Assembly: GCA_934792465.1 (NCBI GenBank)
Contig: CAKVOK010000002.1
Location: forward strand, 23,109 to 87,108
DNA length: 64,000 nt
DNA from: an uncultured Clostridia bacterium
GTDB taxonomy: Bacteria; Bacillota; Clostridia; RUG12999
Direction: 5' to 3'
A model generated the notes under the pieces. It searched no databases. It worked only from the letters and a program-made list of their open reading frames with translations, and had not been told where the DNA came from. Of this stretch, positions 20,723 to 64,000 are shown piece after piece. Numbering within the stretch: position 1 is the first letter of the stretch; every line of letters begins with the position of its first letter. The translations under genes and the position numbers were made by a program.

Positions 20723-20748
20723 TACATTGATTGGGGAAAGGAAGAAAA

Positions 20749-26519: not shown

Positions 26520-26536
26520 AAAGCAAAAGCGGATTA

Positions 26537-26565
26537 TTGATTTTTTGCCGAAAAAAAGGTATAAT
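26537..26565 (+). promoter_or_regulatory. Sigma-A-like promoter TTGATT-17-TATAAT for the 26617 operon
   Basis: The consensus hexamers and the 17-bp spacing are read directly. Confidence 0.55.
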
Positions 26566-26616
26566 GTAGATATGTGCAGCAAGGCACGTATGAAAAAGAT
26601 TTCGGAGGACGATGGA

Positions 26617-38794: not shown

Positions 38795-38824
38795 TTTACA
38801 TACGGTGCGGCAGTATGATATAAT
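38795..38824 (+). promoter_or_regulatory. Sigma-A-like promoter TTTACA-18-TGaTATAAT for the 38883 operon
   Basis: It is read directly. Confidence 0.45.
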
Positions 38825-38882
38825 TTTTACATAACATATCGGCGATTTTCAAAATAATAAAACATGAAAGGAAATGGGTATT

Positions 38883-40934
38883 ATGAAAAAAATCACAGAA
38901 ATGAAAAATTTGAAAAAGACTGCCGCCGCACTTACGGCAGCGGTGCTGATGACATCGGCGGCTTCGGCACAGGTTGTCTATGAACAGGATTTCGGAGGCA
39001 CGCAATATGATTTGTTCGGTTCGAATTTCAATTACACATCATTGGGGAATGCAAATTATGATGCAAATTATATAAAATTTTTGTTTCCCGGCGAAACGGT
39101 TGAAAACGAGGACGGAACGACAACACTTAATCCCAAAGACTACGGAACACCGCAATTTGGAATTAATCCGGATACAATAGGACTCAACAATTATGATGCG
39201 GTAAGCTTTTTCTCGATTGAAAACGGGAAAGGTGTAATAACAAAAATAGGAAACCGAGGCACCTACAACCGTTACGGCTTTAAAAGAAGCCTTGCGGAGG
39301 AAACGGCGGCGTTCAACAAAGCCGAATATGAAAAAGAAAACGGTGCAGCACCGGAAGACCAGACCTTTGACAGCGTAATAAAATCGGGTGTGTGGAATTT
39401 TGATTTTACATTGCAGTCGATGCAGAGCGGAAGAAAGTTTTTTATATTGAGAAACGGCGATACGGAAAAGTTTGCCGTAAATCTCGAAAAATGGGGAAGA
39501 AACGTAGGTATTGCAGATACAATAGACAAAGCGTCGGTAAATAAAATCGGTGAAGATAATATTGATAACAACGGCGCAAATTACGGTCATGCCGTGGCAT
39601 GGGACACGGGTGCGGAGGACTTTCTGAGATTGCAGATTGATTTCGACAAGCAGACACTCCAAATTTACAGAAACACAAGAACACCCGAAAATCCGAACTG
39701 GAAGCTTGTAACGAGGATACCGATAAAAGATGAAAGCGGAAGCATTACGGGATATGACGATGAAAGCGGAATATCGCTTGAAAAATTCGGCGTTGATTTG
39801 AGCGAAGGTATAGACAGTTTCGGTTATGAAGAAATGTTCCACGGAAATCCGTGCAGAATGATAATAGATGATATAAAAATTTCAAGAGTTTCGGACGGTG
39901 CGGAGCTGTATTCCTGCAGCTTTGACGATGCGGAAAAGGACAGCTGGTGGGATTACGGTTTTAAAAGCACATCAAAATACACTACGGCTTGGATGGAGGA
40001 CGGCAGATTAAACTATCGTTCGGCAACAAATGACTTAGGAAATACGATAATAGACAGAGAAATAGGCGAGAATGCAGACAGCGGAGTTTGGACGGTAACG
40101 GTGAAGTACTGGGCAGAGGGCTTGGAAATAGGCGGATCAAGCGTTCCGGCATCTATTTCCGGAGGAGTAAGAAGCTTTATAAACTTCCTGAATGATGAGC
40201 ATAATACCTACAGCATGGTAAACGGTTATGTAAATGATGTTGCGCTCGGAATAAGCTGCGGCAATTTCAATTACCCGCATATGTGGCAGGTTACATGCCT
40301 TAACGGAGAAACAAAAAGCGATTTGCTGAATGCGAATTGTAAAAGACCTGACGGAAAGTCGCTGACGATAGAACCGGAAAAAGGTGCGGAGTATAAGTTT
40401 GTATTTGATTTTAATGCGCACAAAATGTATGTATATGCCAAATTCGTATACAACAATCGCAATTTCAGCGTTGTAAATCCCGAGGGATACGATTTGCCGG
40501 AGGGATTCAGCTTCAATAAAATAAGATTGTTTGATACAAGTGCGAATAAAAAAGCGTGGGCGGCATGGGATCACCTTAAAATAGAAAAATTTGACGGCAC
40601 GGAAAATGTAAAAATTACAACGGACAGCGATTTTGTAGGCAGCGGCGATGTTGTAGGTATCGGTGTTGAATCGTTCAGAGCACCGAGCGAGGAATCGAAG
40701 ATCACATACATAGACAGCAGCAGAATCAGTATTGTTTCGGCGATATATTCGGGAAATAAGCTTGTAAACGTTAAGGTTTCGGAAAATGTTCAGCACAGCG
40801 CATTTGAAGAATTTAAAACGGATTTAAGCTTTGACAACAGCGGAGATTATACTGTTAAGGTATTTGCGATGGATTCCGAAAGCTTCAAACCGCTTGCGGA
40901 CGTTAAGGAGCTTACATGGGTTAATATGGACTGA
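38883..40934 (+). CDS. Secreted hypothetical protein (~680 aa) with the N-terminal Y-E-x-D-F motif and ConA/LamG-like beta-sandwich features. It has no SLH domain.
   Basis: It has a signal peptide (AAVLMTSAASAQ), then VVYEQDFGG. The rest is a beta-rich sequence with no recognisable catalytic motif. It is the first gene of the second module. Confidence 0.5.
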   Translation: MKKITEMKNLKKTAAALTAAVLMTSAASAQVVYEQDFGGTQYDLFGSNFNYTSLGNANYDANYIKFLFPGETVENEDGTTTLNPKDYGTPQFGINPDTIGLNNYDAVSFFSIENGKGVITKIGNRGTYNRYGFKRSLAEETAAFNKAEYEKENGAAPEDQTFDSVIKSGVWNFDFTLQSMQSGRKFFILRNGDTEKFAVNLEKWGRNVGIADTIDKASVNKIGEDNIDNNGANYGHAVAWDTGAEDFLRLQIDFDKQTLQIYRNTRTPENPNWKLVTRIPIKDESGSITGYDDESGISLEKFGVDLSEGIDSFGYEEMFHGNPCRMIIDDIKISRVSDGAELYSCSFDDAEKDSWWDYGFKSTSKYTTAWMEDGRLNYRSATNDLGNTIIDREIGENADSGVWTVTVKYWAEGLEIGGSSVPASISGGVRSFINFLNDEHNTYSMVNGYVNDVALGISCGNFNYPHMWQVTCLNGETKSDLLNANCKRPDGKSLTIEPEKGAEYKFVFDFNAHKMYVYAKFVYNNRNFSVVNPEGYDLPEGFSFNKIRLFDTSANKKAWAAWDHLKIEKFDGTENVKITTDSDFVGSGDVVGIGVESFRAPSEESKITYIDSSRISIVSAIYSGNKLVNVKVSENVQHSAFEEFKTDLSFDNSGDYTVKVFAMDSESFKPLADVKELTWVNMD

Positions 40935-40953
40935 ACGGCAAGGAGAACAAAAC

Positions 40954-42597
40954 ATGATAAAAAAGATTACAGTCGATTTTATGCTGATTTTATCGTTAAT
41001 GACACAATGCGTATTTGCGGGGACGGAGGTTAAAACCTCCTCCCTTGCAAGCGGTTTTGACGAAATAACGATTACGGTCGAAAATGATAATACGCAGGGA
41101 TTTATAAGCGTATATGTCTATGCGGAAAACAAAACCAAGCTTGTATTTATGGGTCAGCAGAGAGCGGAAAGTAAAAATATATTCAGCTTCGGCATTAAAC
41201 CCGAAAGTGAAAGATTTGAAAAATATACGGTGCGGATAAATCGCAGCGGCGAATCGGAGGAAATTGATTTTAAATATTATACGTACAGGCAGCAGGAGGA
41301 TGCAATTGCAAGGCTGCTGTCGGGGAATGAAATAACGGCGGAGCTTGCTGAAATTCTGTCGCTTGATATAAGCGAAGAAAGTCTGTACGGCAGATTGGAG
41401 AATAAATCGTCGGTATTGAGCGAAATGAAGAAAAATTCGGATGTAACCCCGGAAAATATCGGCGAAGTATTTACTCAGTCTGCGGTCAATGCTGCTTTTA
41501 GAAGCAGAAATCCGTCTACACTCAAAATGCTGGCAGAACAGTATAAGGATATAACAAAGCTGGAAGAAAATTATAAAACCGAGCTTGAATGGTATAATGA
41601 TACGGAAGATAAAGCGGAATTTTGGAACAGGATTTCCGCCGTAGAGTATGCCGATGCGGACGAATACGGCAAAGCCTTTGCCGCACAGGCGTTTTTGTAC
41701 AAAGAAGCCGACGTGCCGTATTCGGGACTTGAAGCCTTTATACGCTCCTGCAACGGGAAATATATGCAGAACGGAAAAACATTGAATGTTGATTTTAGCG
41801 TGCTGAATCTGAAAAACCGGACGGATATTGACAAGACAATGTACAAAATCGCAGATACGCTGTATGAGAGCATAGAAGCACTGGAAACGGCAATAAAAAA
41901 AGCTGCGGAGGAGGTAAAAGCGGAGAGCGGCAGCGGAGCCGGCAGCTCCGGCGGCGGTTCATCGTCCGGCGGCAGTGTAAAAAGCGGCAGCGGAAACAGC
42001 GGTTCGGGTACGTCAAGTACATATATCAAGCCGACAACGCAAAATACGGGAAGCATAGCTTTCGGTGACATAGCAAATGTGCCGTGGGCGAAAGAAGCAA
42101 TACTCGGTCTTGCGGAAAGAGGTGTTGTAAACGGTATGGGTGCAGGAATATTCGAACCCGAAATGCTTGTTACAAGAGAGCAGTTCGCCAAAATGGCTGT
42201 GCTTGCGTTCGGATTTAAAACGGACGTCGGCGGCGCAAGCTTTGCGGACGCAGACAGCAGCGCATGGTATATGCCATATATTTCGGCATGCAATGCGAAC
42301 GGAATTATGATAGGCACCGGCGAAAGATTCGGAATCGGAGAAGCGGTATCGAGGCAGGATATTGCGGTTGTACTGTACAGAATACTGAAAATCAAGGGAA
42401 TAAGCGGCTCAGCTGAGAAAAATAATTTCAGCGATGCGGCGAAGATTGCGGATTATGCCGAGGAAGCGGTGAACTTCCTTTATAATAAAGGCATTATGAA
42501 TGGCACGGGAGATAATAAAGTATCGCCGGGCAAATTTGCCGACAGAGCGGAAACGGCAAAGCTGATATACGATACTCTTAAATTCATGGGCGAGTAA
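40954..42597 (+). CDS. Secreted protein with an N-terminal beta domain, an alpha-helical region, a Gly/Ser linker and three C-terminal SLH repeats
   Basis: It has a signal peptide. The linker is SGSGAGSSGGGSSSGGSVKSGSGNSGSGTSS. The SLH repeats are FGDIANVPWAKEAILGLAERGVVNGMGAGIFEPEMLVTREQFAKM, ...GERFGIGEAVSRQDIAVVLYRIL and ...NKVSPGKFADRAETAKLIYDTL. Confidence 0.65.
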   Translation: MIKKITVDFMLILSLMTQCVFAGTEVKTSSLASGFDEITITVENDNTQGFISVYVYAENKTKLVFMGQQRAESKNIFSFGIKPESERFEKYTVRINRSGESEEIDFKYYTYRQQEDAIARLLSGNEITAELAEILSLDISEESLYGRLENKSSVLSEMKKNSDVTPENIGEVFTQSAVNAAFRSRNPSTLKMLAEQYKDITKLEENYKTELEWYNDTEDKAEFWNRISAVEYADADEYGKAFAAQAFLYKEADVPYSGLEAFIRSCNGKYMQNGKTLNVDFSVLNLKNRTDIDKTMYKIADTLYESIEALETAIKKAAEEVKAESGSGAGSSGGGSSSGGSVKSGSGNSGSGTSSTYIKPTTQNTGSIAFGDIANVPWAKEAILGLAERGVVNGMGAGIFEPEMLVTREQFAKMAVLAFGFKTDVGGASFADADSSAWYMPYISACNANGIMIGTGERFGIGEAVSRQDIAVVLYRILKIKGISGSAEKNNFSDAAKIADYAEEAVNFLYNKGIMNGTGDNKVSPGKFADRAETAKLIYDTLKFMGE

Positions 42598-42610
42598 AGG
42601 GGGAAACGTC

Positions 42611-45394
42611 ATGAAAAAAATTATAGCGTTTGTCTTGACGGCGATATTTGCAATGTCGTGCATATCTGCGTCGGCAGATGAAATAAAAAACAGTGAAAAA
42701 TTCAAAAGATATTGCACAATTCTGAAATCGGCAGGCATAGAAACGGGATTTTCGAACGAAAACAATGTAATATCAAGAGAAAAACTGGCGGAACTTGCAC
42801 TAAAACTTACCAAAACAGAGAGCGAAAAATGCACATCGGCAAAATACATTGATGTTCCTCTGAAACATTATGCGGCGGATTTGGTGTATACGGTTACGCA
42901 GAACGGATATATGGCAGGCTTTGACGATAATACATTCAGATTGAATCAACCTGCCTCGGCATATGAATTTGCGAGAGTGCTGCTGTATATGCTCGATTAC
43001 GGTACAATGGCAAAAAAATTGGCATGGACGGAAGCGGATTTTAACAAACGGATTGCCGGAACAAATCTGCTTAACGGAACAAATTCATCGGTGCTTACCG
43101 AGGGCAATGCTGCCGTTATGCTTTATAATATGCTGAAAGAGCCTGTGCTTATCGTTGAAAGCATAACGAATAAGGGAGCGGAATACAAAACCTCCGCAGA
43201 CAAAACATATATAACGGAAAAATGCAGCCTGCTCAAATGCAGCGGAGAAATTCGTGCCGACGGAGAGGCAGCGGCGGTGGGCATCGAGCCGACAGGCAAG
43301 GGAAAAGTGAATATCGGCGGAGAAATATATTATTATGACGGCGATTTAAAAAACAATATCGGATATACGGCGGAGTTTTATGCAACCGATATAAAGTCGG
43401 AGGATATTCAGACGATAATATATCTTGAAATAAAAGAACCGTCGGCAGAGATTACGATTGACGCCGAGGATATACAAAGCTTTTCCAAAGGAACTTTGAA
43501 ATATGAGTACGGCGGCAGAACAAAGACGGAGTATATAAACAGAAACAAAGCGAGTATATTTGTGAACGGCGCAAATGCCGAAAACGTTACGGATACCTTG
43601 TTTACACCGCAGTCCGGTAATTTAAGGCTTGCGGATTTTGACGGTGACGGAACGTTCGATTCGGTTTTTGTAACGTCTGTTGTGTATATCAAGGTTGCAC
43701 AGGTAAATACAACGGATTATACGATTGTCGATTCCGATATGAAATACGAGATTGTAAGCGATGAGGACGCATTAGATTCGGACGGAGGAATAGAAGGCAT
43801 TGCAAACGGAAGCATTATAGCACTTGCGCCGAGCGATTTTGAGTACAAATACATAAACGGACAAAAAATTCCTATGCCGAAGGCGAAAGCAAAACATCTC
43901 AAAGCACAAAAAATCGAAACAGCCGAATCCGGAACGGTAAAATCATACAACGAAGATATGATGACAATATCCGACGGAGAAAACGAAGTAAGTTTTGAAT
44001 ATTCAAAATGGTTCAAGCTTCTGGTTAATGCCGGAGTGTATAAGCTGCCGGATACGGACAGTAATATTACGGTTTATGCGGATAACGGAAAAATTGTTTA
44101 TGCGGACGTTAATTCAATATACGGCGGAGCAAACAAAAAATATACATACGGCTATCTTGTAAAAATGTCGATGAACAACGGCACGCTCGAAAATCCGCAG
44201 TTTAAAATTTATACGGAAGAGGGCATTATGGAAAAGCTCGAAGCTTCCGATAATTTAAAAATAGACGGAGCGAGAGCTTCGACGGCGGACAAAATTAAGA
44301 ATACAAAGCTTTGCCGAAACGGCGAAACGGTAAAACAGCTTGTATGCTTTGATTTAACGGAGGACGGAAAGTTGAAAACGCTTTATACCGCACGCGATTT
44401 TGCTTCAAAGCAAATAACGGACGAAGGCGGAAACACCGTTGACAATCCGGATTACGACCCGAACTACCGCGGATATAACGAAAATTGCTTTTCGTATGAC
44501 TACGGCTGTGCGGAATCGGAAAAAATCACATACAGACACGGATTCAGACATCTTTATACGTTGGACGAACAGGCAACAAAGGTGTTTGTTGTACCGTCGG
44601 ACAGCGAGGACGAAAAATATTTCCAATTAAGGACACCGAGCTATTTTATAAATACCTCGCAATACAGCGTGAAGCTTTATGACGTGCAGAAAAACTTTGT
44701 TCCGTCGGCTGTTGTATGTATGGTAAAGGCGAGTGCCGGCACGGTGGAAATACCGCTGGAGCTGTATCCCGGAAATCCGTGTGCCATAGTTATGAAAACA
44801 TCGCAGGCAATAGACGATGAGGGAGAGATAAGACCGCAGATAACGGTCATGGAAAACGGTTATCCGTTTAAGGTGGGCGCACCGTCCGGAGTTAGACGTG
44901 AATTGTTTGCGTCCGATGATGAAATGACATCGTATAACGGAACACGATACAGCGGAGGAATATATCCGTCCGTTAAATTCAAGGATTTGGTTCCGGGCGA
45001 CGTTATAATGTTCAAAACGAACGATAGGGGCGAAATCAGCGGATACAGAGTTCTCACGAGATACAATGATTTGTACGACGAAAACGGAAATTTTATATGC
45101 CGTGAAATAAATACCAATGACCCTACGGCATCAATGTATATAACCTGCGGAAAGGTTGTCGATATTTTTGACGATTACAGCTTTACGTTCAATATCGACC
45201 CGAACGAAAACGTATCGGGACTGCGGTATTGCTATCAGGGGATAAATTCGACCAACTTTGCTGTGAACCTATACGACCCGACAAAATCGTCGAAAGTCAT
45301 AAGCTGCACCTCTAAGGAAATACGGATAGGGGATTATATCGTTACGAGAAGCGAGAGCGGTAAGGCACTTGAAGTATTTATTTTCAGAAAATAA
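42611..45394 (+). CDS. SLH-domain protein (N-terminal SLH repeats plus a large beta-rich region), paralog of the 18080-20722 protein
   Basis: It has a signal peptide and an SLH-like segment ...GYMAGFDDNTFRLNQPASAYEFARVLLYML. Its overall architecture and several blocks align with 18080-20722. Confidence 0.6.
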   Translation: MKKIIAFVLTAIFAMSCISASADEIKNSEKFKRYCTILKSAGIETGFSNENNVISREKLAELALKLTKTESEKCTSAKYIDVPLKHYAADLVYTVTQNGYMAGFDDNTFRLNQPASAYEFARVLLYMLDYGTMAKKLAWTEADFNKRIAGTNLLNGTNSSVLTEGNAAVMLYNMLKEPVLIVESITNKGAEYKTSADKTYITEKCSLLKCSGEIRADGEAAAVGIEPTGKGKVNIGGEIYYYDGDLKNNIGYTAEFYATDIKSEDIQTIIYLEIKEPSAEITIDAEDIQSFSKGTLKYEYGGRTKTEYINRNKASIFVNGANAENVTDTLFTPQSGNLRLADFDGDGTFDSVFVTSVVYIKVAQVNTTDYTIVDSDMKYEIVSDEDALDSDGGIEGIANGSIIALAPSDFEYKYINGQKIPMPKAKAKHLKAQKIETAESGTVKSYNEDMMTISDGENEVSFEYSKWFKLLVNAGVYKLPDTDSNITVYADNGKIVYADVNSIYGGANKKYTYGYLVKMSMNNGTLENPQFKIYTEEGIMEKLEASDNLKIDGARASTADKIKNTKLCRNGETVKQLVCFDLTEDGKLKTLYTARDFASKQITDEGGNTVDNPDYDPNYRGYNENCFSYDYGCAESEKITYRHGFRHLYTLDEQATKVFVVPSDSEDEKYFQLRTPSYFINTSQYSVKLYDVQKNFVPSAVVCMVKASAGTVEIPLELYPGNPCAIVMKTSQAIDDEGEIRPQITVMENGYPFKVGAPSGVRRELFASDDEMTSYNGTRYSGGIYPSVKFKDLVPGDVIMFKTNDRGEISGYRVLTRYNDLYDENGNFICREINTNDPTASMYITCGKVVDIFDDYSFTFNIDPNENVSGLRYCYQGINSTNFAVNLYDPTKSSKVISCTSKEIRIGDYIVTRSESGKALEVFIFRK

Positions 45395-45416
45395 TCGGAG
45401 TCAGGGAGGAAAAAAG

Positions 45417-46370
45417 GTGAAACGCACAGAATATATAAGTAGGTGCAAAAAAGGAGCTGCCGCAGTCTTGAAGGACGAGATGAAAAATTACTGGCAGCTG
45501 TATGTGTTACTTATTTTGCCCATAGCTTATTTTATAATTTTTAAATATTTACCCATGTACGGTGCGCAGATTGCATTCAGGGACTATAGTCCCGTGAAAG
45601 GCATAACCGGCAGCCCTTGGGTAGGACTTAAACATTTCAAAGCCTTCTTTTTGAGTCCGCAATGCAAAATGCTTATTGTAAATACCGTAGCGCTGAGCTT
45701 GTATTCGATAATTGCGGGATTTATTTTCCCGATTATACTTGCGATATGCTTTAATTACATAGGAAATGCAGGGTTGAAAAAGCTTGTGCAGACGGCAACA
45801 TTTATACCTAATTTTATTTCTACGGTTGTAATGGTCGGAATTTTGTTTCAGCTGTTCAATCCGAGAATAGGTGTAATAACAAATCTTATTGAAGCAATAG
45901 CGCATACAAAAATTGACATACTCGGCAATCCGAAAATGTTCAGGCATCTTTATGTCTGGTCGGGAGTGTGGCAGACGGCAGGCTGGAACTCCGTTATATA
46001 CATTGCCGCACTCACGGGTGTCGATGACCAGCTTCATGAGGCCGCAATCGTAGACGGCGCAAGCAAAATCAAGAGAATAATACATATTGATATACCGGCG
46101 ATTATGCCTACGGCGATTATAATGTTCATACTTAATCTCGGCGGAGTAATGACCGTTGGGTTCGAGAAAACGCTGCTCATGCAAAATTCGCTGAATATAG
46201 GATATTCGGAGGTTATAGACACATATGTCTACAAGATAGGTATAGCGGCGCAGGGAGCAAGCTTTTCCTATCCCTCGGCGATAGGTATTGTTCAGGCGAT
46301 AATAAACTTTATACTTGTATTTACGGTAAACAAAATTTCGGCAAGGGTTTCGGAAACCTCGTTGTGGTAA
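45417..46370 (+). CDS. lplB: Carbohydrate ABC transporter permease, LplB/YtcP type (second copy)
   Basis: The LILPIAYFIIFKYLPMYGAQIAFRDYSP N-terminus is paralogous to 30395-31321. It has a GTG start after an AGGGAGG RBS, or alternatively ATG 45479. Confidence 0.75.
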   Translation: MKRTEYISRCKKGAAAVLKDEMKNYWQLYVLLILPIAYFIIFKYLPMYGAQIAFRDYSPVKGITGSPWVGLKHFKAFFLSPQCKMLIVNTVALSLYSIIAGFIFPIILAICFNYIGNAGLKKLVQTATFIPNFISTVVMVGILFQLFNPRIGVITNLIEAIAHTKIDILGNPKMFRHLYVWSGVWQTAGWNSVIYIAALTGVDDQLHEAAIVDGASKIKRIIHIDIPAIMPTAIIMFILNLGGVMTVGFEKTLLMQNSLNIGYSEVIDTYVYKIGIAAQGASFSYPSAIGIVQAIINFILVFTVNKISARVSETSLW

Positions 46371-46383
46371 GGGCGGTGAAAGA

Positions 46384-47292
46384 ATGGCAAAAAAGGAAAA
46401 ATCAATATCTGAACGCAATATGTTCAAAGGTGATGTTACGTTCGACATAATAAATCATATAATAGTATTTATCGTTCTTATTATAGTTGCGTATCCGATA
46501 ATTTATGTTGTAAGCGCATCCTTCAGCTCGCCGACGGCGATTATGGCGGGGAAGATAAGGCTTTTGCCGGTTGAGCCGGGGCTTGAGGGATATAAAGTTT
46601 TGCTGAAATATTCAAAGGTGCTTACGGGATTTTACAATTCCGTGATATATACGGTGTTCGGTACGCTGATAAGCATGTTTCTGACGGTATGCGGGGCGTA
46701 TCCGCTGTCACGTCCGGATTTTAAGGTGAGAGGGAAAATACTGCTGATGTTCGCATTTACAATGTGGTTTACGGGCGGCATAATCCCGACGTATATGATA
46801 GTGCAGAAAATAGGCATACTCGATACACGTCTGGCGATTCTGCTCCCCACGGCGATAAGCTTTTACAATCTCACGATTGTAAGGACGTATTTTGTGAACA
46901 GCATACCAAAGGAGCTGAATGAAGCGGCGAGAATAGACGGCTGCGATGATTTCAGATATCTGATAAAAATTGCACTGCCGCTTTCCGTACCTGTGCTGGC
47001 AGTCGTCGGAATGTATTATGCGGTGGGACAATGGAACTCATATTTCAACGCATTTTTATATTTGCAGTCGCAGAAGCTTTTTCCGCTGCAGATAGTATTA
47101 AGGGATATACTTATACTTAATTCGGCAAACGACGCAATCGGCGATTTACAAATTGCAAGCCAAAGAGAATATATGTCGGAGCTTTTGAAATATTCTCTTA
47201 TCGTTGTTTCGTCATTGCCGGTAATAATGATTTATCTTGTAGTCCAGAAGCATTTGATAAAAGGAATTATGATAGGAGCAATAAAAGGCTAA
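46384..47292 (+). CDS. lplC: Carbohydrate ABC transporter permease, LplC type (second copy)
   Basis: It is a paralog of 31342-32223, with the same EAA loop (EAARIDGCDDFRYLIKIALP) and C-terminus KGIMIGAIKG. Confidence 0.8.
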   Translation: MAKKEKSISERNMFKGDVTFDIINHIIVFIVLIIVAYPIIYVVSASFSSPTAIMAGKIRLLPVEPGLEGYKVLLKYSKVLTGFYNSVIYTVFGTLISMFLTVCGAYPLSRPDFKVRGKILLMFAFTMWFTGGIIPTYMIVQKIGILDTRLAILLPTAISFYNLTIVRTYFVNSIPKELNEAARIDGCDDFRYLIKIALPLSVPVLAVVGMYYAVGQWNSYFNAFLYLQSQKLFPLQIVLRDILILNSANDAIGDLQIASQREYMSELLKYSLIVVSSLPVIMIYLVVQKHLIKGIMIGAIKG

Positions 47293-47307
47293 AAGGAGGC
47301 AGGCAAT

Positions 47308-48936: not shown

Positions 48937-48956
48937 TATCAAAAGGAGAGAATGTC

Positions 48957-51170: not shown

Positions 51171-51199
51171 CAGAGATACATTAATCGGGAGGAAAGTAT

Positions 51200-54616: not shown

Positions 54617-54627
54617 GAGAATTCAAA

Positions 54628-55902: not shown

Positions 55903-55903
55903 T

Positions 55904-57262
55904 ATGAAAAAAATATTTATTTTAGTAATGCTTGCCGTATCGGTGTTTGGTACATCGTATGCCGCCGGCATTGAAACGATATATGAGGAAGATTTTGAAA
56001 CCACGGGCAAATTAACGGCTGTGCAATACATGGACGAAAATGCGAATATAGAACAGCCGAAAGTAACGAATAGCGGACTGAAAAGTATAGATTTCGTGAA
56101 GGAGGGCGGCTCGAATGCACTTAAATTCACGGGATATACTTCATCGGAGTTGTCGGGAAACGGCACAAAAACAGTAAACTTTGTTTTTGACAAACCGTAT
56201 ACGCTTGCGGATTATCCGAATACCAAGCTTGTTGTTTCGTTCTCGGAATATATAACGCTTGCCGATGCGAATGCATATGAGCATACATATATTCAAGGCG
56301 GCGGGAAAAATGTTATTCAGATGTTCTGGTCGGCAAAGAATGGCGAAGCACCCTTATACAGATGCAATAACAAGGGCAATATAGGCAAAAAAGCGGACTT
56401 GAACCGAAAAATAGAATCAATATATGTTTTTGATATGGAAAACAAAATGTTCGATTTTATTTTCGACGGCAGCGAGTTTAATTCAAATTCTATGATGTCC
56501 GATACGGTTACGCAAATAGACATGTTGGGATTCAAAATAGAAAAAGGACATATATTTTCAGTCGATAATATAAAGGTTTATGCCATATCTGCCGGTGTTC
56601 CGCTCGAAATAACCGAGCCGAGTCTGAACGGCGATGAAAACGTGAACGTGGAAAGCGGATTTACGGCGAAAATTTCTTCGTACATTAAAAATGAAGATAA
56701 AATAAGTGTGACGGCAGGCGGCACAACACTTGATAAAAGCAAATATTCGATAAATCAGAAATATGTTGCCGAGGACGGCGGATATGTTCTGCTTACGCTG
56801 AAATTTAACGAAAAGCTTGATTATCTTACAAAATATGAAATAATATTTGATTCCGAGCTTAAAGACATAACGGGGACGGCGTTGGGTGAAACAAAAATAT
56901 TTGCGTTTACGACCGAAAAAGAAGCGAGAGTATATATGAACGGAGTTGAATGTTTTTCGGGATTTTCGGGCACCGGAGAACGGCTTATATCCGTTGCCGA
57001 GGCAAACGGGAAATATGTAACGTTTCGTATATCGGCGGCAAATGACTTTACATCGGAAAAAACAGGCGCATTTGTTGTAGAATGTTGTGATGCCGACGGA
57101 AATCCGCTCACAAAAGCTGTTCTGGAGGGGAAATTTATTGCCGGAGAAAACAGTTTTACATACGGCACATATATCGGAAACGATATATGCAGCGTGAAAG
57201 CGTATGTTATTGATTCTGTGATCGGCGGGAAAATGATGTCCGATACGGCGGTGTTTGAATAA
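55904..57262 (+). CDS. Secreted ConA/LamG-like domain protein with a C-terminal Ig-like domain (Y-E-x-D-F family member)
   Basis: It has a signal peptide (VFGTSYAAG), then IETIYEEDFETTG. The core ends IFSVDNIKVY. It is a paralog of 57327-58532. Confidence 0.5.
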   Translation: MKKIFILVMLAVSVFGTSYAAGIETIYEEDFETTGKLTAVQYMDENANIEQPKVTNSGLKSIDFVKEGGSNALKFTGYTSSELSGNGTKTVNFVFDKPYTLADYPNTKLVVSFSEYITLADANAYEHTYIQGGGKNVIQMFWSAKNGEAPLYRCNNKGNIGKKADLNRKIESIYVFDMENKMFDFIFDGSEFNSNSMMSDTVTQIDMLGFKIEKGHIFSVDNIKVYAISAGVPLEITEPSLNGDENVNVESGFTAKISSYIKNEDKISVTAGGTTLDKSKYSINQKYVAEDGGYVLLTLKFNEKLDYLTKYEIIFDSELKDITGTALGETKIFAFTTEKEARVYMNGVECFSGFSGTGERLISVAEANGKYVTFRISAANDFTSEKTGAFVVECCDADGNPLTKAVLEGKFIAGENSFTYGTYIGNDICSVKAYVIDSVIGGKMMSDTAVFE

Positions 57263-57326
57263 AATAGATAATTGCATTATAATATTTTACAATTAACCGA
57301 TTTGAATAAACCGAAAGGAGAAAATA

Positions 57327-58532
57327 ATGAAGAAGTTTTTTGCTGCGGTTTCGGCGGCAATATGGCTCACGGTCGGCGTTTCGGCAAACGATAACTGCCT
57401 GATGTATCATGATTTTGAGGGGATTACCGACAATGCCGAAACGTATATTTCGGATACGGAAAGTATTATAACATCAAGTACGAACAGCGGATTGAAAAAT
57501 TATGATTTTATATTTGAAAACGGAAGTACAAGACTTTGCTTTACCGCTTACAAATCCGGAGAATTAACGGGCAATGCATCGAGAAAATTTGCATTTGTGT
57601 TCCCTGAATACAGTCCTGAAAAATATCCCGGCACAAAGCTTGTGCTTGGATATGATGAAACGGTATATGAAAGAAGGGACGGAAACAATATTCATATGAA
57701 TGTGTCCGACGGCACCGGAAAACAGATGACGCAGCTTTTTGCATTCCCGGAGGGAGATTCCGATAAGCTGCGTATGCTTATGAAAGATACGGTATACGTG
57801 CGTCACGGAGAAAATACCGAATACAGGCTGACAGCAGATATAGGTACGCAAAAATTTGTGTTCGGCGTTGGAGAGAATTTCAGCAAGGAGTATGATTTTC
57901 AAAGCAATATATCGGAGATTTCAATGATTTCATGGTTACCGACAAAGAATGAAAAATATTCCCTGGATAATATATATGCATGGGTTGTGCCGAATACGTT
58001 TTCGGTATCGGAATATACAAAAAAAATAAGAGTTTCCGATAAAAAAATATCTGTGTATTTATCAGCTCCGGCGGACAAAACCGTATTGGACAAAATAAGT
58101 GTTAATAATGAGAAAAGCGGATTTTTTGTAACACAGAATTTTAAGAAAGCACAGCTGGATATAGTTCTTAAAAATGTTTCTTACGGCGAAAAGTATAAAA
58201 TAAGCTTTGAGGACGGATTTAAAGACATTGCCGGGAATAAGATGACTGCGGAATTTGAAGCGGTAGCCGAAAGCTTTCCCGAATTTAATATTGATTCATC
58301 ATATGAGCATATCGGAAACGATATAAAATATCGGGCATATGCCGAAAATCCATCCGAAAGCAGTGCAAAAGCATATATTATTGCCGGACTCTATGACGAA
58401 AACGGCATACTTACTCAATGTGCATTTTTTGAAGGTATGTTTAAACCTATGCAAAAGCAGGGATTTGAGGGTGTGTTCAAGGATTGTGCAAATTCAAATG
58501 TAAGGATATATGCGGCAGCAAAAGAGGGGTGA
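57327..58532 (+). CDS. Secreted ConA/LamG-like domain protein with a C-terminal Ig-like domain (Y-E-x-D-F family member)
   Basis: It has a signal peptide (WLTVGVSAND), then CLMYHDFEG. Aligned blocks are TNSGLKNYDF / TNSGLKSIDF and PGTKLVLGYDETVY / PNTKLVVSFSEYI. The core ends YSLDNIYAW. Confidence 0.5.
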   Translation: MKKFFAAVSAAIWLTVGVSANDNCLMYHDFEGITDNAETYISDTESIITSSTNSGLKNYDFIFENGSTRLCFTAYKSGELTGNASRKFAFVFPEYSPEKYPGTKLVLGYDETVYERRDGNNIHMNVSDGTGKQMTQLFAFPEGDSDKLRMLMKDTVYVRHGENTEYRLTADIGTQKFVFGVGENFSKEYDFQSNISEISMISWLPTKNEKYSLDNIYAWVVPNTFSVSEYTKKIRVSDKKISVYLSAPADKTVLDKISVNNEKSGFFVTQNFKKAQLDIVLKNVSYGEKYKISFEDGFKDIAGNKMTAEFEAVAESFPEFNIDSSYEHIGNDIKYRAYAENPSESSAKAYIIAGLYDENGILTQCAFFEGMFKPMQKQGFEGVFKDCANSNVRIYAAAKEG

Positions 58533-58536
58533 GCAT

Positions 58537-61500
58537 ATGAAGAAAATAATTGTATTTATTATAATGCTCGCCGTTATTACAATGCAGGCTGCCGCATATG
58601 TCACGGAACCGCTTACTGTGTATGACGGCAAGCTCGGCATGTACGAAACGAAGGTATATACGGACGAAGCGGTAACGCTTAAAGCATATTCGGGCGGCGA
58701 GGAAGCGGAAAGCGTGTCGAAGCTGACATCGGGCGGCGGATATATAGGTATCCGTACAAAAAAAGATATGGAATACAAGCTGTTTCGCAACGGAACGGAA
58801 ATAATTCCGCAAAGCTTTGATTATACGGCAGATTTTACGGTGACGGGAACCTCGGCAAATAGCGGATATTCGCCGCAGGAAAAGCTGTATTTTGAATTTT
58901 CCGAACCGATACTTCAAAGCAGTATCGGCTCAATAAAGGTGTATGCGAACGGCAAAGAGGAAAACGTCACCGTTTCGGCTGCGGAAAATAGGATAGAAAT
59001 ATCGAGGGCAAAAGGTTTGTTTGCTTATAATACGGATTTTAAGGTTGATTTGAGCGAACTTTGCGATTTGCTTGAAAGAAAGCTTGAAATCAGCGTATAC
59101 GAATTTAAAAGCTGCGATGTATCGGAAAATTTTTCGGTGTATCAGGAAGCAAAGGTATTTTCGCAGGCAGGTATAGGCGGATTCGCCATGCTTGCGGAAT
59201 TAAGCGGAGATACGGTTTTTCATTTTTCGAGAAAGACGCAGATTCCGAAAAGCGAAGCACTTCCGTTTGTTCCGTCATGCTATGCGAAAATATACGACCC
59301 GAACGGACGGCTCGCATACATATATGATTTTACATATTCGGAAACAGGTACGGAAATTCGGGAAGTATCGCTTCCGTATATGGAGGGAATATGGCAGATT
59401 CAGTTCATAAGCGGACGGGAAAAGGATATTCTCGGCATAGGCATATCGAATGCCGAAAGCTGGGGCGTAAGAGGAGAAACGATTCTCGGCATTACAGAAA
59501 CAACGCTGAAAAGCAGTTATGTTTATGTTGCGGAAAAAGCGGACAGCATGATAGTATCTTCAACGGCAGGCAGCAGCTTTAAAATATACGCTGAGGACGG
59601 AACGCCGAAAGGTACTTCGGGCACTGTTTCGGGAAAAACATTCGCAAGAACAAATTGTGAAATAAGCAATATTTCGGCAGATGAAGTGTATCGCATAGAA
59701 TTGGACGAATATTTCCGTGACGGAATCATAGTGGACAGAATACCGTCGCTTATGTGTCCCACAGCGGAAATGGCAAGGACGCTTAAAGGCGGCTGGGAAG
59801 ATGCCGACGGCATAATCGTGCAGGGGGCAGTGCAGAAAAATATGCGGAAAGAAGCGTTACGGCTGCTCAGAGAGAAAAATTTGAACGTATCAGCACCGCA
59901 AAAACCGCAGCAGCTGCCGAATATCGAAAACCCTGTTGCGGAAAGCCTTATGTTCGGCTCATACGGTCTTGTATCTCCTGTCGGCGACCAAATAAAACGC
60001 CAGGTAACAGATCCGTCAAGCCCGTATCTCGGCAGATTTTTGACAACGGCGGAATATAATTCGGGTAATATGGTTTCGTGGGAAACGGGAAACTATAATG
60101 CATGGGGTTCAACGGCATTCGGCGCACTTGCCGCAACAAATGCGGAGCTTAATTATTTCTACGAAAACGAAGCGCTGATAAACAGAAGTGCATTGTCGAT
60201 TCTCGGCAGTCTTGCGGCGCTTTCGGAGGATTTTATCATACGTGAGGGAAACGATGCGGCGAATTATCCGACAACGCACGGGAATTTTTATTTCAGCTGG
60301 ATTTCCAAATGCTATGCATATATAAGGGATTATCTCGATGAGCAGACAAAAAATACCATAGATTTGGGTATTTCCGCACTTTGCGACAAACAGGGAAATT
60401 ACAGAGGAATGAGAGTGAATAATCAATGGATGTTCACTGTGACGGCTGTTGAAGCGGTATCGAGGTCGGTGGGCGAAAACCGTCATTTGGATTTCGCCAA
60501 GCGGCATATAAGAGGGCTTGCGAACGGCTCGCATCTCGGCTGGCAGGGTCAAAGCTCGGCAGGCTATTATATTGAAAACAACGGGTGCGACGGCTCGTAT
60601 CACAATCTTAACCGACAACTCATATATACAATGTACAAGGAGCATAAGGCTTCGGAAAACGCAGACGGAGAAATTCTTGCTATGCTTAGTGAATCGATAA
60701 AAAAGAATGTTGAATTTGCCTCTCTGTTTTGGGTAACACAGCCGGAATATACGGATGCATACGGCCCGAACTGCTTTACGACCAGAACAGACGCAGCGGC
60801 AGAATGTATAGACCATATGGCATATCCGGCTATAGCCGATGAATTTCCGCTTGCAAAACGCAGATTTGAGGTTCAGAATATGCCGAAAAAAGGATTCGGC
60901 GGAGCAGGAACATTTCCGTATTATGTCAACAATGACGAATGGGCAATGCGCCTTATAAACCGATATTGGACTTCATACGAAAATGGGACGAGAGGATATT
61001 CCTCAAACGGAAGTCCGCAATGGTATGAAGTATTGAAAAATCGTGATAATTGCACAGCGGAACCGCTTCCGTGCGAATATGAAAGCGGAATTTGGGAAGA
61101 ACCGGGTATTATTGCAGTAAAGCATAAGGGTATATATTTCAATGTCTTTTATGCGTTCCCGGAAAGCATTTCCATGCCGGAAAAGTCGTATATGGGCGGA
61201 GGAATCACAATGCTTTGGAGCGAGCCTACGGGAACGGTTGTTGCTTCCGAAAAGCATAAAAACTATCCGAATGTGAGAAATGCCGATGATATAAGGGCGA
61301 CTTGCGTATACGGCGAAAACGAAAACGGCGGATTTATATTCAACGGGAAAGGCAAGGCAGAGCTTGAGTGGCTTGAAAACGGAAAAAGCTTTGAAATTTC
61401 GGAAAGTATACCGAACAGCTCAGCAAGCGTTGCATGGACATATACTCTGCTTGAAGATTGCGTTGAAATGAAAGTTAAAGCAAGCGGTATTACAAACGGA

Positions 61501-61956
61501 GCGGTGAATATTCCGATAAAAAAGACAGAGGAAAAAGCCGTTGTGACAAGTGATGAAAATGCTGTGTATTATACATACGGAAATGAGGAGGTCGCATTTT
61601 CGAGCGAGAATGAATGCAGCGTAATAGCGGACGGCAATATATCAAAACTGCGTGTGAAGCTTGACGGGAATAACGAGGCGAAAATTATGATTTCCGCACA
61701 GCTTACGGGAGGATTACAGATAGCAGAGGAAAACGGCGGAGATGTAACACTGCTGAACGGAAACGCAGGGACAAAAAATGCAGATGTTTATTATGTGGAA
61801 TATGACAAAAAGGGACGAATTACATCAGCAGAAAAACGAACAGTGTCTGTAAAGGCGCATGAATACAAAAAGATTTATATTACAGATGGAAAGCGTATAT
61901 TTATATGGGACGGAAATATGAGTCCCGTGCAGCGGAAAGGAATGGTACGGCAATGA
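58537..61956 (+). CDS. Large secreted protein (~1140 aa), paralog of 51200-54616, with N-terminal Ig-like domains instead of SLH repeats. It is a candidate novel glycan-active enzyme.
   Basis: It has a signal peptide (MLAVITMQAAA). Blocks shared with 51200 are IPSLMCPTAEMARTLKGGW, NYFYENEAL, GCDGSYHNLN, and the Y.NFR/FYAFPE and WSE.TGG regions near the C-terminus. I place the start at ATG 58537. Confidence 0.55.
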   Translation: MKKIIVFIIMLAVITMQAAAYVTEPLTVYDGKLGMYETKVYTDEAVTLKAYSGGEEAESVSKLTSGGGYIGIRTKKDMEYKLFRNGTEIIPQSFDYTADFTVTGTSANSGYSPQEKLYFEFSEPILQSSIGSIKVYANGKEENVTVSAAENRIEISRAKGLFAYNTDFKVDLSELCDLLERKLEISVYEFKSCDVSENFSVYQEAKVFSQAGIGGFAMLAELSGDTVFHFSRKTQIPKSEALPFVPSCYAKIYDPNGRLAYIYDFTYSETGTEIREVSLPYMEGIWQIQFISGREKDILGIGISNAESWGVRGETILGITETTLKSSYVYVAEKADSMIVSSTAGSSFKIYAEDGTPKGTSGTVSGKTFARTNCEISNISADEVYRIELDEYFRDGIIVDRIPSLMCPTAEMARTLKGGWEDADGIIVQGAVQKNMRKEALRLLREKNLNVSAPQKPQQLPNIENPVAESLMFGSYGLVSPVGDQIKRQVTDPSSPYLGRFLTTAEYNSGNMVSWETGNYNAWGSTAFGALAATNAELNYFYENEALINRSALSILGSLAALSEDFIIREGNDAANYPTTHGNFYFSWISKCYAYIRDYLDEQTKNTIDLGISALCDKQGNYRGMRVNNQWMFTVTAVEAVSRSVGENRHLDFAKRHIRGLANGSHLGWQGQSSAGYYIENNGCDGSYHNLNRQLIYTMYKEHKASENADGEILAMLSESIKKNVEFASLFWVTQPEYTDAYGPNCFTTRTDAAAECIDHMAYPAIADEFPLAKRRFEVQNMPKKGFGGAGTFPYYVNNDEWAMRLINRYWTSYENGTRGYSSNGSPQWYEVLKNRDNCTAEPLPCEYESGIWEEPGIIAVKHKGIYFNVFYAFPESISMPEKSYMGGGITMLWSEPTGTVVASEKHKNYPNVRNADDIRATCVYGENENGGFIFNGKGKAELEWLENGKSFEISESIPNSSASVAWTYTLLEDCVEMKVKASGITNGAVNIPIKKTEEKAVVTSDENAVYYTYGNEEVAFSSENECSVIADGNISKLRVKLDGNNEAKIMISAQLTGGLQIAEENGGDVTLLNGNAGTKNADVYYVEYDKKGRITSAEKRTVSVKAHEYKKIYITDGKRIFIWDGNMSPVQRKGMVRQ

Positions 61957-64000
61957 GCAAGGCGGAATGGATGAGCGGAAAATACGGTGTTATGGTTCAT
62001 TATCTTTCGCATATACTTTCGGCAGACGGTACAAAAAAGCTGTCGCCGAACGAAATGGCGGAGAATTTTAATGTAAAAGAATTTGTGAAAAGTATAAAGA
62101 GAATGGGCGCAAGCTGGGTTATATTCCCGATAGGACAAAACACGGGATTTTATTGGTCGGAAAATCCGTATATAGAGAAGCTTGCGCCGGGACATTGCGC
62201 AAATCGTGACCTTATTTCGGATATTGCGGAGGAACTTAATGTGCAGGGCATACGGTTTATCGCATATCTGCCGACAGAAACGGATGCGCAAAGCGAGGAA
62301 ATGAGAAAGGCGTTCGGCTGGGATTTGTCGGCGGACAAAAAAGAATTTATGAAAAGATATATTCCGATTGTAAGATATTATGCGGAAAAATTCGGCGATA
62401 AACTCAGCGGCTGGTGGTTTGACGGCAATTACAAATCGTCTGAAAAATCGTTTTTAAGAACGCATGACTGGGATAACGGCAGATTTGACAGGGAAGAATG
62501 GTTTGCTGCCGTTAAGGCGGGAAACCCCGAAGCTGCGGTTGCTATGTGTACAGGTGCAAATCATATGGGATATGTTTTTGAGGAAGAGGAGTATTTGCCC
62601 GGAGAAACGAATGATTTGACGCATTTCCCATGGGAATATGACAGCCGGGAAAAACAGTGGCACGTACTTACGTGGCTGGATTGCTTCTGGATGTACGGCG
62701 AGGGCAAAATGCCTCCTTTGAGATATTCAAACAAGACATTGTATGAATATGTCAGAAGATGCACCGACAAAAAAGGTGCGGTCACGCTGAATATAGGAAT
62801 ATATGAGGACGGCACACTTGCAGAGGAGGCCGTTCACCAGGTCGAGGGACTGCGTACTGCGCTTGCCGTTGAAAATCCTATAGAGTTGACAAATATATAC
62901 GGAGAATTGATTAAAAAATTTGAAATCCATGCGGATAGTATGAAAGACGAAATGCCGTATGAGCCGGCGGCATGCGAGGACGGAATGTATGCCGAAAAAG
63001 GTTCGGAACTTAGCAGTATGTGGAACTGGACAACATCGTTTGTAACGGGTCTTGCGCCTATGTATTATCAGGTTGAAAAGTCGGAAAAATATTTGAAATG
63101 GGCAAATGCTTTTGAAAAATATTATCATGCGAAGATGTTTGATACGCCGCTTGAAAGTATGCACGATATAGGTTTTTTATACAGTCCGTACAGCGTGGCA
63201 ATGCATAAGCTTACGGGTGATATGTCGCACAGAAACGACGCACTTCGTGCAGCAGATGAGCTTGCAAAACGTTTCGATATAAACGGACGGTATATTGACG
63301 CATGGGGACGTATGAATGACGACGGCAGAACAGGCAGAGCGATTATAGATTGCATGATGAATATAGCACTGCTGATGTGGGCATTTAAAGAAACGGGTCA
63401 TACGTATTACCGTGACGTCGCAAAGGCACATGCAGATACTACGAAAAAATATTTTATACGTGACGATTTTTCGGTTGCACATTCGTTTGATTTCGACAGA
63501 AAAACAGGCAAGGTTTTGAGAGAAAACAACGGCTGCGGATATGCAAACGGCAGCTGGTGGGCGAGAGGAACGGCATGGGCGATTTACGGCTTCGCTCTTA
63601 TCGGCAGATACGAAGAGGAATACGCTCGGCTTTCGGAGAAAATAGCCAAGGCTTATATAGGCCGGCTCGAAAAGGATAAATATGTGCCTGTCTGGGACTT
63701 CAGACTGCCGAAAGATATGCCGGCAAAGAAGTGCGGCACAGAACCTGCCGATTGGGACGAAACAGACGCAAGGAATAAAATATATAATGTAGATACGTCC
63801 GCTGCGGCAATATCGGCGTGCGGAATGCTTACGCTGTATGAACTCGGCGGCAGCACGGATATGCTTTCTTTCGCAGTGAAAACGCTGGAAGCGCTTAGTG
63901 CGGAATATGTGAACAGAAACGTGAATGTTCCCGGCATTCTGAAATATCAGAACGGGCAGAAATCATATACAACCTACGGCGATTATTTCTATACGGAGCT
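61953..64000 (+). CDS. Two-domain glycoside-hydrolase fusion. The N-terminal half is an uncharacterised GH-like module; the C-terminal half is a GH88/GH105-like unsaturated uronyl hydrolase domain. The 3' end lies outside the window.
   Basis: My in-frame translation finds no stop codon to the window end. The N-terminal half includes GASWVIFPIGQNTGFYWSENPY...GWWFDGNYKS. The C-terminal half includes HDIGFLYSPYSVAMHKL, RAIIDCMMNIALLMWAF and WWARGTAWAIYGFALIGRY, which match GH88/105 motifs. The start overlaps the stop of the upstream gene (ATGA). Confidence 0.55.
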   Translation, partial: MSKAEWMSGKYGVMVHYLSHILSADGTKKLSPNEMAENFNVKEFVKSIKRMGASWVIFPIGQNTGFYWSENPYIEKLAPGHCANRDLISDIAEELNVQGIRFIAYLPTETDAQSEEMRKAFGWDLSADKKEFMKRYIPIVRYYAEKFGDKLSGWWFDGNYKSSEKSFLRTHDWDNGRFDREEWFAAVKAGNPEAAVAMCTGANHMGYVFEEEEYLPGETNDLTHFPWEYDSREKQWHVLTWLDCFWMYGEGKMPPLRYSNKTLYEYVRRCTDKKGAVTLNIGIYEDGTLAEEAVHQVEGLRTALAVENPIELTNIYGELIKKFEIHADSMKDEMPYEPAACEDGMYAEKGSELSSMWNWTTSFVTGLAPMYYQVEKSEKYLKWANAFEKYYHAKMFDTPLESMHDIGFLYSPYSVAMHKLTGDMSHRNDALRAADELAKRFDINGRYIDAWGRMNDDGRTGRAIIDCMMNIALLMWAFKETGHTYYRDVAKAHADTTKKYFIRDDFSVAHSFDFDRKTGKVLRENNGCGYANGSWWARGTAWAIYGFALIGRYEEEYARLSEKIAKAYIGRLEKDKYVPVWDFRLPKDMPAKKCGTEPADWDETDARNKIYNVDTSAAAISACGMLTLYELGGSTDMLSFAVKTLEALSAEYVNRNVNVPGILKYQNGQKSYTTYGDYFYTE

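Follow-up and report, generated by a model that had tools for sequence, protein, structure and literature searches.

The closest described counterparts of the locus analysed here are, for the gene set, the xylan system of Paenibacillus sp. JDR-2 (PMC4765114) and, for the proposed enzymes, the polysaccharide lyases (PLs) that join an (alpha/alpha)n toroid to an antiparallel beta-sandwich. The locus is a module on a 64,000-nucleotide stretch of an uncultured Clostridia genome (contig CAKVOK010000002.1; "the window" below means this whole stretch), and it contains two paralogous secreted proteins of ~1140 amino acids (aa), here called A and B. With the JDR-2 system, and with a second module upstream in the window that carries a PL12-like lyase and the glycoside hydrolases (GHs) GH88 and GH95, it shares an SLH-anchored large secreted protein, LplB/LplC-type permeases, a lipoprotein solute-binding protein (SBP), an AraC-type membrane sensor and exo-acting enzymes without signal peptides. 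It differs from both in that its surface enzymes have no assignable family, and in that two paralogous cores are combined, in a fixed order, with three dedicated ConA-like/Ig proteins (Ig1 to Ig3). On balance we favour, with modest confidence, the explanation that A and B act as surface depolymerases and belong to an undescribed family with a toroid-lyase fold, that the ConA-like/Ig proteins are their helpers, and that unsaturated products are imported and trimmed by GH88 and other cytoplasmic glycosidases. The fold and the logic of such a system are known; the sequence family is unassigned, and its candidate catalytic set deviates from those of the known families.

In the known toroid lyases the Asn-to-Tyr spacing is 53-59 residues (PMC12088678 Table 4). 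It is 59 in PL8 (1RWA: N183, H233 and Y242, the His nine residues ahead of the Tyr), 57 in PL17 (N201 and Y258), 54 in PL35 (N192, Y246 and H401), in PL12 (N240, Y294 and H424) and in PL15 (N336-H337, Y390 and H555), and 53 in PL39 (N186-H187, Y239 and H405) (PMC12088678). PL8, PL12, PL15, PL21, PL35 and PL39 all use a His (PMC12088678 Table 4), and acidic residues occur near the catalytic Tyr in true lyases, namely Glu242 of PL35 and Glu205 of PL21 (PMC12088678). The His sits on the beta-sandwich in PL12, PL15, PL17, PL35 and PL39. His-free mechanisms have been put forward as well: for the PL17 enzyme Alg17c, Tyr258 has been proposed as acid and Tyr450 of the beta-sheet domain as base, and PL5 employs a single Tyr with Asn and Arg and no catalytic His (PMC4765187).

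The initial annotation had drawn the region from 38.8 kb to the window edge as a co-directional glycan-utilisation string whose large secreted proteins carry no GH, PL or carbohydrate esterase (CE) signature. Both statements agree with what we found. The 13 open reading frames (ORFs) from 38874 to the window edge all lie on the + strand and are separated by small gaps or overlap in the ORF list, and they encode surface enzyme candidates, an ATP-binding cassette (ABC) importer with its SBP, a regulator and intracellular glycosidases, the gene content of a Gram-positive polysaccharide utilisation locus. By gene content the region is a Gram-positive surface glycan-utilisation module. All its large proteins have signal peptides except the final fusion, and none of the eight secreted non-transporter proteins matched a GH, PL or CE family in searches of Pfam (models to 2025), NCBIfam release 20 (2026) and PDB sequences (2026), the only databases behind this family-less status.

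The same annotation had taken the two ~1140-aa proteins for paralogs and had proposed that one or both represent a new lyase or hydrolase family. Their paralogy is clear, with 34% identity over 835 residues (E 5e-133). A consists of a signal peptide, SLH repeats at about residues 40-190 and a lyase-fold core at about 248-1075. Searches of Pfam, NCBIfam and PDB with phmmer and profile hmmsearch gave no match for the A/B core, and A returned its SLH repeats only; neither Pfam at E up to 10 on 13 aligned members nor Pfam on ten distant members found a lyase or hydrolase family in the former or any family in the latter. When a word-indexed set of 5.8 billion proteins was searched, A retrieved six close relatives and one at 28% identity, and B retrieved eight relatives, every one of them unnamed or labelled 'hypothetical protein' and without a Pfam family in the core domain. 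The 13-sequence profile, run exhaustively with HMMER against 1.84 billion cluster representatives, matched 231 proteins at E up to 1e-3, 119 of them at E up to 1e-30. The common core spans ~870 residues (profile positions 230-1095). The family is present at 13 loci in GTDB, taking one genome per species, and a scan of JGI metagenome contigs yielded one locus that was already known. Its hosts are uncultured Clostridia only, represented by metagenome-assembled genomes (MAGs) of Oscillospiraceae or Monoglobales from animal and human guts. Judged by these searches, A and B would found or belong to a sequence family that is not represented in Pfam, NCBIfam or PDB.

To this family we could assign a predicted fold. 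The AlphaFold2 (AF2) model of B, made with a 13-sequence alignment, has a predicted local distance difference test score (pLDDT) of 79.6 and a predicted template modelling score of 0.71, and contains an (alpha/alpha)n toroid with an antiparallel beta-sandwich after it, a two-domain arrangement. The structural matches, with the match score given after each entry, are PL35 (9o3q, 16.8; 8khv, 15.6), PL39 (6jph, 15.9), PL15 (3a0o, 15.9; 6ljl, 14.6), PL40 (9vtk, 15.3), PL12 (4fnv, 15.0), DS-epimerase (6hzn, 13.8), PL21 (3e7j, 13.7), PL17 (9irq, 13.6), PL8 (2wco, 11.9) and PL33 (8r6z, 11.7). This was in independent agreement with Foldseek, where PL17 (4ok2, E 3.6e-11) came first and was followed by PL17, PL8 chondroitinase ABC (7eip), PL39, PL15 and PL8 (2wda), while glycoside hydrolases and mutarotase-like proteins matched B by a single domain only, over fewer than 200 residues. 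Because the structure matches and Foldseek both point to toroid lyases, the modelled fold of B is assigned to the class of heparinase II/III, alginate and chondroitin lyases, despite the absence of a sequence relationship. The domain order equals that of PL35 (9O3Q/8KHV), PL39, PL15, PL17, PL12, PL21, PL40 and PL8, and an N-terminal beta domain is likewise present in PL15 and chondroitinase ABC. As fold and HMM searches placed neither A nor B in a non-enzymatic family, the proposal of a new lyase or hydrolase family is not refuted and gains support. The candidate that A and B are pure adhesins was rejected on the lyase fold and the invariant polar cluster described next.

Residue conservation was taken from an hmmsearch-derived, HMM-guided alignment of 97 full-length A/B members, down to ~25% identity. 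Eleven polar residues are near-invariant (in B numbering Q442, Q498, N548, R559, N638, Q639, E689, D694, Y697, R759 and Y876), each being kept in 88-96 of the 97 members, and A and B carry all of them. Such a set in the toroid and sandwich appears typical of an active site. In the B model N638 and Y697 open the helices 638-654 and 697-714, with one helix between them, and lie 59 residues apart; the Asn183/Tyr242 pair of PL8 has the same helix-starting positions and distance. Y876 is the sole invariant polar residue of the beta-sandwich. E689 and D694 precede Y697 by eight and three residues, and E689 falls at the position of the PL8 His. By analogy, the Asn-Gln ... Tyr spacing together with the Arg and the sandwich Tyr resembles a lyase catalytic set. 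Conserved Arg residues, the extracellular location and a GH88 encoded nearby are also shared with toroid lyases, whereas the lack of detectable sequence or profile similarity, the absence of a conserved His, the invariant Glu and Asp ahead of the Tyr and the larger core set A and B, whose lyase role is a prediction, apart from them. The residue after the Asn differs as well, being Gln in A/B, His in alginate lyases and Asn in PL35.

The analysis shows the gene content, the paralogy of A and B, the similarity of fold, the conservation of residues, the synteny and an intact active site in GH88; from these we infer lyase chemistry, residue roles, complex formation and substrate. In the mechanism that we propose, A would be anchored to the cell wall by its SLH repeats, and B and the three ConA-like/Ig proteins would be secreted and act with A, probably as substrate-binding partners or as a complex. 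A and/or B would cleave a glucuronate-containing heteroglycan via beta-elimination, with Y697 of B as the putative proton-transfer residue, N638/Q639 and the Arg residues (R559, R759) neutralising the carboxylate, and Y876 of the sandwich perhaps serving as a second acid/base in place of the His of PL12, PL15, PL35 and PL39. The unsaturated oligosaccharides would be bound by the SBP, imported by the two permeases and trimmed in the cytoplasm by the GH29-like/GH88 fusion and then by GH43-like, GH29 and GH78-like enzymes encoded beyond the window, and the membrane AraC protein may sense the glycan.

A more ambitious version of this mechanism, which we regard as speculative and quite improbable as a whole, would make A/B a new His-less PL family with a Tyr/Tyr or Tyr/Glu pair on the toroid, working in a surface machine of SLH-anchored A, three Ig adaptors and free B. 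This would be the Gram-positive counterpart of the Bacteroidetes utilisome, and its target a glucuronate/deoxyhexose glycan that has as yet no known degrading enzyme. If A and B are lyases, they would form a new family in CAZy, add a His-less variant to the toroid lyase mechanisms and give a function to ~230 clusters, now hypothetical, from human and herbivore gut MAGs of uncultured Clostridia (Oscillospiraceae and Monoglobales types); HMM-based counts of carbohydrate-active enzymes (CAZymes) would otherwise underestimate the glycan-degrading capacity of the host Clostridia. The A-Ig-Ig-Ig-B cassette would then be a testable multi-protein depolymerase assembly on a Gram-positive surface. The case itself shows that a search by fold can bring out catalytic candidates where a locus seems 'enzyme-free' by sequence.

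Several observations weigh against lyase activity of A and B. At no position among the 97 members does a His reach 55% conservation, and the invariant E689 and D694 beside the Tyr would, as far as conservation can tell, be compatible with a hydrolase or with a metal site too. The most conserved motif, G685-E689-D694-Y697, includes a low-confidence loop (pLDDT <50, 674-696), and the equivalence of A/B residues to those of known lyases is one of spacing and helix position, not of superposition. A profile link between the family and any PDB lyase was not detected, and hhalign of the 97-sequence profile to the PL12-like lyase in the window gave a probability of 0.2%; over the 13- and 97-sequence profiles, the SLH repeats alone matched this lyase, or nothing. 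Furthermore, the GH88 domain could serve the neighbouring PL12-like module instead, and GH88 was not found within 10 kb of the distant members at loci L003-L015. With no GH88 so close to the distant members, the GH88 link speaks for lyase chemistry in the window's own orthologue group alone.

Some of these observations would fit A and B being non-lyase enzymes on a lyase-like scaffold, either GHs acting through E689/D694 or epimerase-type enzymes, with the GH88 substrate supplied by another enzyme such as the PL12-like protein at 26488-30393. The invariant acids without a conserved His, the neighbours of distant members (GH27, oxidoreductases dependent on flavin adenine dinucleotide (FAD) and sugar ABC systems, with no nearby GH88) and the adjacency of two modules in the window, each with its GH88, all speak for this explanation. 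We nevertheless consider it unlikely, as the best whole-protein structural matches are all lyases and GH families match as single domains of fewer than 200 residues only. The invariant Asn...Tyr spacing suits the lyase set, acids near the Tyr are found in true lyases too, and the transporter, regulator and GH88 of the module argue for a source of unsaturated products of its own.

If A and B were instead non-catalytic binding or scaffold proteins with a lyase fold, the depolymerase would have to be sought among the ConA-like/Ig paralogs, as a beta-jelly-roll lyase, or in the 927-aa or 686-aa protein. Ig1 was modelled with AF2 (pLDDT 82.5): its ConA-like jelly roll spans residues 25-224 and is accompanied by a Big_5 Ig domain and by a beta-sandwich at the C-terminus. 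Enzymes matching the jelly roll were PL36 (14.2), PL14 (13.8), GH131, PL20 (12.6), GH16, PL13, PL7 and PL28, and, judged from the model, the fold alone does not tell a binding protein from an enzyme. Aligned over 20 sequences, the Ig family conserves F33, L97, D172 and D216 alone in the jelly roll, and the Tyr/His/Arg/Gln/Lys catalytic set of the beta-jelly-roll lyases (PL7, PL13, PL14, PL18, PL20 and PL36) is not kept among these 20. The conserved residues look like the structural motifs 'DFE' in the first strand and 'DNI' in the last strand. Since no family-wide catalytic set is kept, binding is favoured, and Ig1-3 are probably glycan-binding accessory proteins rather than catalysts. This sets them apart from PL36, PL14 and PL20, as structural Asp and Phe residues alone are conserved across the Ig family, and the closest known proteins with which they were compared are ConA-like lectin and carbohydrate-binding module (CBM) domains (the Vibrio cholerae sialidase lectin domain/CBM40, NanS-p and accessory domains of BT_1020).

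The other secreted candidates are less well defined. For the 686-aa protein, Pfam, NCBIfam and PDB gave no match. The initial annotation had called it 'Y-E-x-D-F/LamG-like'; its motif VVYEQDFGG is present, but the LamG part was not borne out, as hhalign to LamG, to the Ig family and to the upstream LamG proteins gave no significant signal. The 927-aa protein, described earlier as a second SLH protein, is indeed one: its orthologue profile matched SLH domains in the PDB (E 2.6e-5), although Pfam SLH on the protein itself stayed below threshold (E 0.15), and besides SLH nothing was found in the PDB. It is also related to the SLH protein at 18080-20722 in the upstream module (BLAST E 3e-11). The structurally uncharacterised state of these two proteins, and the missing catalytic His of both A and B, leave some room for a non-catalytic role of A/B. 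We find such a role quite unlikely, given that eleven polar residues are near-invariant in 97 sequences as in an active site, that the Ig family keeps only four residues in its jelly roll, that at locus L003 a ConA part stands N-terminal to the B-like core in the manner of a CBM, and that the paralog of the 927-aa protein sits in a module that has its own lyase. That A and B belong to a family already in CAZy, for example a recent PL family without Pfam model or structure, in which case only the annotation gap would be new and the function would overlap with the depolymerase explanation that we favour, is very unlikely in our view: new PL families are created often and our literature search on newly described lyase families, PL43-46 and Monoglobus SLH enzymes, which found nothing relevant, was not exhaustive in coverage, but Pfam, NCBIfam and PDB sequences gave no match, database members are all unnamed or 'hypothetical protein', and the family is very small, with all its members in MAGs of uncultured Clostridia.

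Gene order also speaks for the depolymerase explanation. The order SBP-AraC-A-Ig-Ig-Ig-B-GH29-like-GH88 is kept at 50-70% identity in three loci: L001 (GCA_054297345.1), which has a fourth Ig-like gene in the cassette, L002 (an Oscillospiraceae MAG), which shares the GH29-GH88 fusion of the window, and L016 (JGI 3300027796), which has GH29-like and GH88 as two genes with a GH127 after them. Locus L017 is the same sequence as the window on a longer ENA scaffold, with an identical B, and here the fusion ends ~13 codons past the window and is followed 3' by a GH43-like protein, a clear GH29 (E 7e-47), a GH78-like six-hairpin protein and then housekeeping genes. The cytoplasmic enzyme set thus assembled from sequence suggests a glycan with glucuronate, fucose or related deoxyhexoses, rhamnose and pentose. 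In L017 the AraC sensor is split (421-2634; 524 + 200 aa) compared with the single 737-aa ORF in the window (48957-51170), which is either a frameshift or assembly difference or a strain-level inactivation of the regulator.

Accessory genes also accompany the more distant family members. Ig-like genes lie 5' of A/B-like genes in L004, L005, L007, L008 and L009, and orthologues of the 927-aa SLH protein were found by tblastn ahead of the cassette in L001, L007 and L009. At L003 (9047-13186; MAG Clostridia RGIG8497, water deer cecum) a single 1379-aa ORF carries an Ig2/3-like ConA domain, 33% identical to residues 21-253 of the window Ig2, N-terminal to a B-like core. This co-occurrence and the L003 fusion argue that the Ig and 927-aa proteins work with the A/B core. 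An extra 419-aa Big_5 gene is located between the B-like and GH29-like genes of L001 (21327-22586), and so the number of Ig/ConA accessory genes varies between genomes.

Members at 25-40% identity adjoin sensor kinases, sugar ABC transporters, FAD oxidoreductases or GH27, and some have non-CAZyme neighbours; the kinases and sugar transporters are in keeping with the depolymerase explanation. Genes for FAD-dependent oxidoreductases (PF12831 or FAD-depend_C) adjoin distant A/B genes at L004 (12447-13697), L012 (7920-9404) and L015 (6519-7763 and 8492-9892), and thus recur in three unrelated MAG loci, which hints that the distant subfamily may serve a different, possibly oxidative, pathway. L015 (10001-16729, equal to L013) also holds two distant A/B genes (1101 and 1102 aa) in tandem, without transporter or CAZyme neighbours and flanked by FAD-protein genes and housekeeping genes; the A/B pairing recurs even outside a utilisation locus.

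At the intracellular end of the module, the GH88/105 half of the final fusion had been named as the sole classifiable catalytic domain. This was too narrow, since residues ~5-300 are GH29-like (Pfam Alpha_L_fucos, E 4e-10, 40 bits against a cutoff of 25.2; PDB 9pnj, E 7e-11). The GH88 half itself was confirmed: residues ~316-682 match the GH88 unsaturated glucuronyl hydrolase (UGL) 1vd5 by PDB phmmer (E 7e-44), and the equivalents of D88 and D149 are kept (alignment mhDigf and aiiDcm at chain positions 88 and 149), which we take to be the catalytic Asp pair of the Bacillus enzyme. Like the UGL of Bacillus sp. GL1 (1VD5) the window domain is cytoplasmic with both Asp kept, and unlike it is fused to a divergent GH29-like domain. 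Run on the fusion with E up to 0.01, Pfam hmmscan gives Alpha_L_fucos only and overlooks the GH88 half, while the separate GH88 gene of L016, 63% identical to the fusion half, carries PF07470. The missed call seems to stem from a quirk of filtering or thresholds, by which automated annotation could be misled.

The coordinates of the module are collected in Table 1.

Table 1. Features of the module in the window. Positions are nucleotides (nt) of the window unless residues are named; residue numbers of B count from the ORF start at 58510, the length of B being 1139-1148 aa depending on the start.
Feature	Position	Strand	Basis or remark
Promoter-like site, TTTACA-18-TATAAT with upstream TG	38795..38824	+	50 nt 5' of first module gene; consensus match only
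Secreted protein, 686 aa, no family	38874..40934	+	signal peptide; motif VVYEQDFGG
Secreted protein, 588 aa, three C-terminal SLH repeats (cell-wall anchor)	40954..42597	+	Pfam SLH E 1.5e-31
Secreted protein, 927 aa, divergent N-terminal SLH region; other ~750 aa without family	42611..45394	+	orthologue profile vs PDB
ABC permease, LplB-type	45369..46370	+	Pfam BPD_transp_1; true start probably downstream of 45369
ABC permease, LplC-type	46384..47292	+	Pfam BPD_transp_1
Lipoprotein SBP	47308..48936	+	Pfam SBP_bac_8; N-terminal lipobox-like TGCS
Membrane AraC-type regulator, 737 aa	48957..51170	+	N-terminal transmembrane segment; C-terminal HTH_18
Protein A, 1138 aa	51200..54616	+	signal peptide; Pfam SLH E 2.8e-16; paralogous to B
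A, candidate catalytic residues	residues N691, Q692, E744, D749, Y752, R816, Y940		
Ig1, 424 aa, secreted; ConA-like jelly roll, Big_5 Ig, C-terminal beta-sandwich	54628..55902	+	
Ig2, 452 aa, paralog of Ig1/Ig3	55904..57262	+	Big_5 E 1.7e-7; BLAST to Ig3 E 6e-19
Ig3, 401 aa, paralog of Ig1/Ig2	57327..58532	+	Big_5; BLAST
Protein B, 1139 aa from ATG 58537	58537..61956	+	signal peptide; nothing above Pfam threshold
B, Ig-like beta domains after the signal peptide	residues 30-200		AF2 model
B, conserved beta domain	residues 200-410, nt 59107-59739		AF2 model
B, helical toroid	residues 419-845, nt 59764-61044		AF2 model
B, beta-sandwich	residues 860-1140, nt 61087-61929		AF2 model
B, candidate N638/Q639	60421-60426	+	
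B, candidate E689	60574	+	
B, candidate D694	60589	+	
B, candidate Y697	60598-60600	+	
B, candidate R759	60784	+	
B, candidate Y876	61135	+	
Cytoplasmic GH29-like/GH88 fusion	61953..64000	+	no signal peptide; window edge removes ~13 codons before stop

The promoter-like site coincides with the coordinate at which the initial annotation lets the module begin, and such consensus sites are no more numerous in the region than shuffling would lead one to expect. The likely start of the 588-aa SLH protein is the ATG at 40954, within the ORF 40831-42597.

The adjacent upstream module, for which a heparinase-like lyase, GH88, GH95 and an SGNH esterase had been annotated, proved in family searches to have this content. 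Its lyase (26488-30393) combines CBM96, a heparinase II/III-like part and SLH and is related to PL12 heparinase III (E 2.5e-14), and GH88, GH95 and a GDSL/SGNH esterase are also encoded. The layout is that of the A/B module, the place of A being taken by an SLH-anchored protein that is recognisable as a PL12-like lyase, and this parallel speaks for the depolymerase explanation. Both modules start with a secreted protein of no catalytic family. In the upstream module, a 561-aa protein (16375-18060) is built from a repeat in two copies, and each copy shares ~33-35% identity with the Laminin_G_3 region present in the 1098-aa SLH protein (20731-24027).

A mobile or defence island was rejected as an explanation for the region, as the surroundings are housekeeping and CAZyme genes and the 64-kb window contains no tRNA or Rfam elements. 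The window begins with SpoIIM (438-1854 region) and an XerC/D-type tyrosine recombinase, beyond which lie the housekeeping genes radical SAM, NFACT, QueA, LemA and DUF2207. Two adjacent + strand ORFs at 12261-14618 (785 aa) and 14640-15869 (409 aa) are 76% identical in their C-terminal 169 residues, where they show SLH-like similarity, and also share a repeated internal segment. This pair, 5' of the glycan modules, looks like a recent partial duplication of a surface protein.

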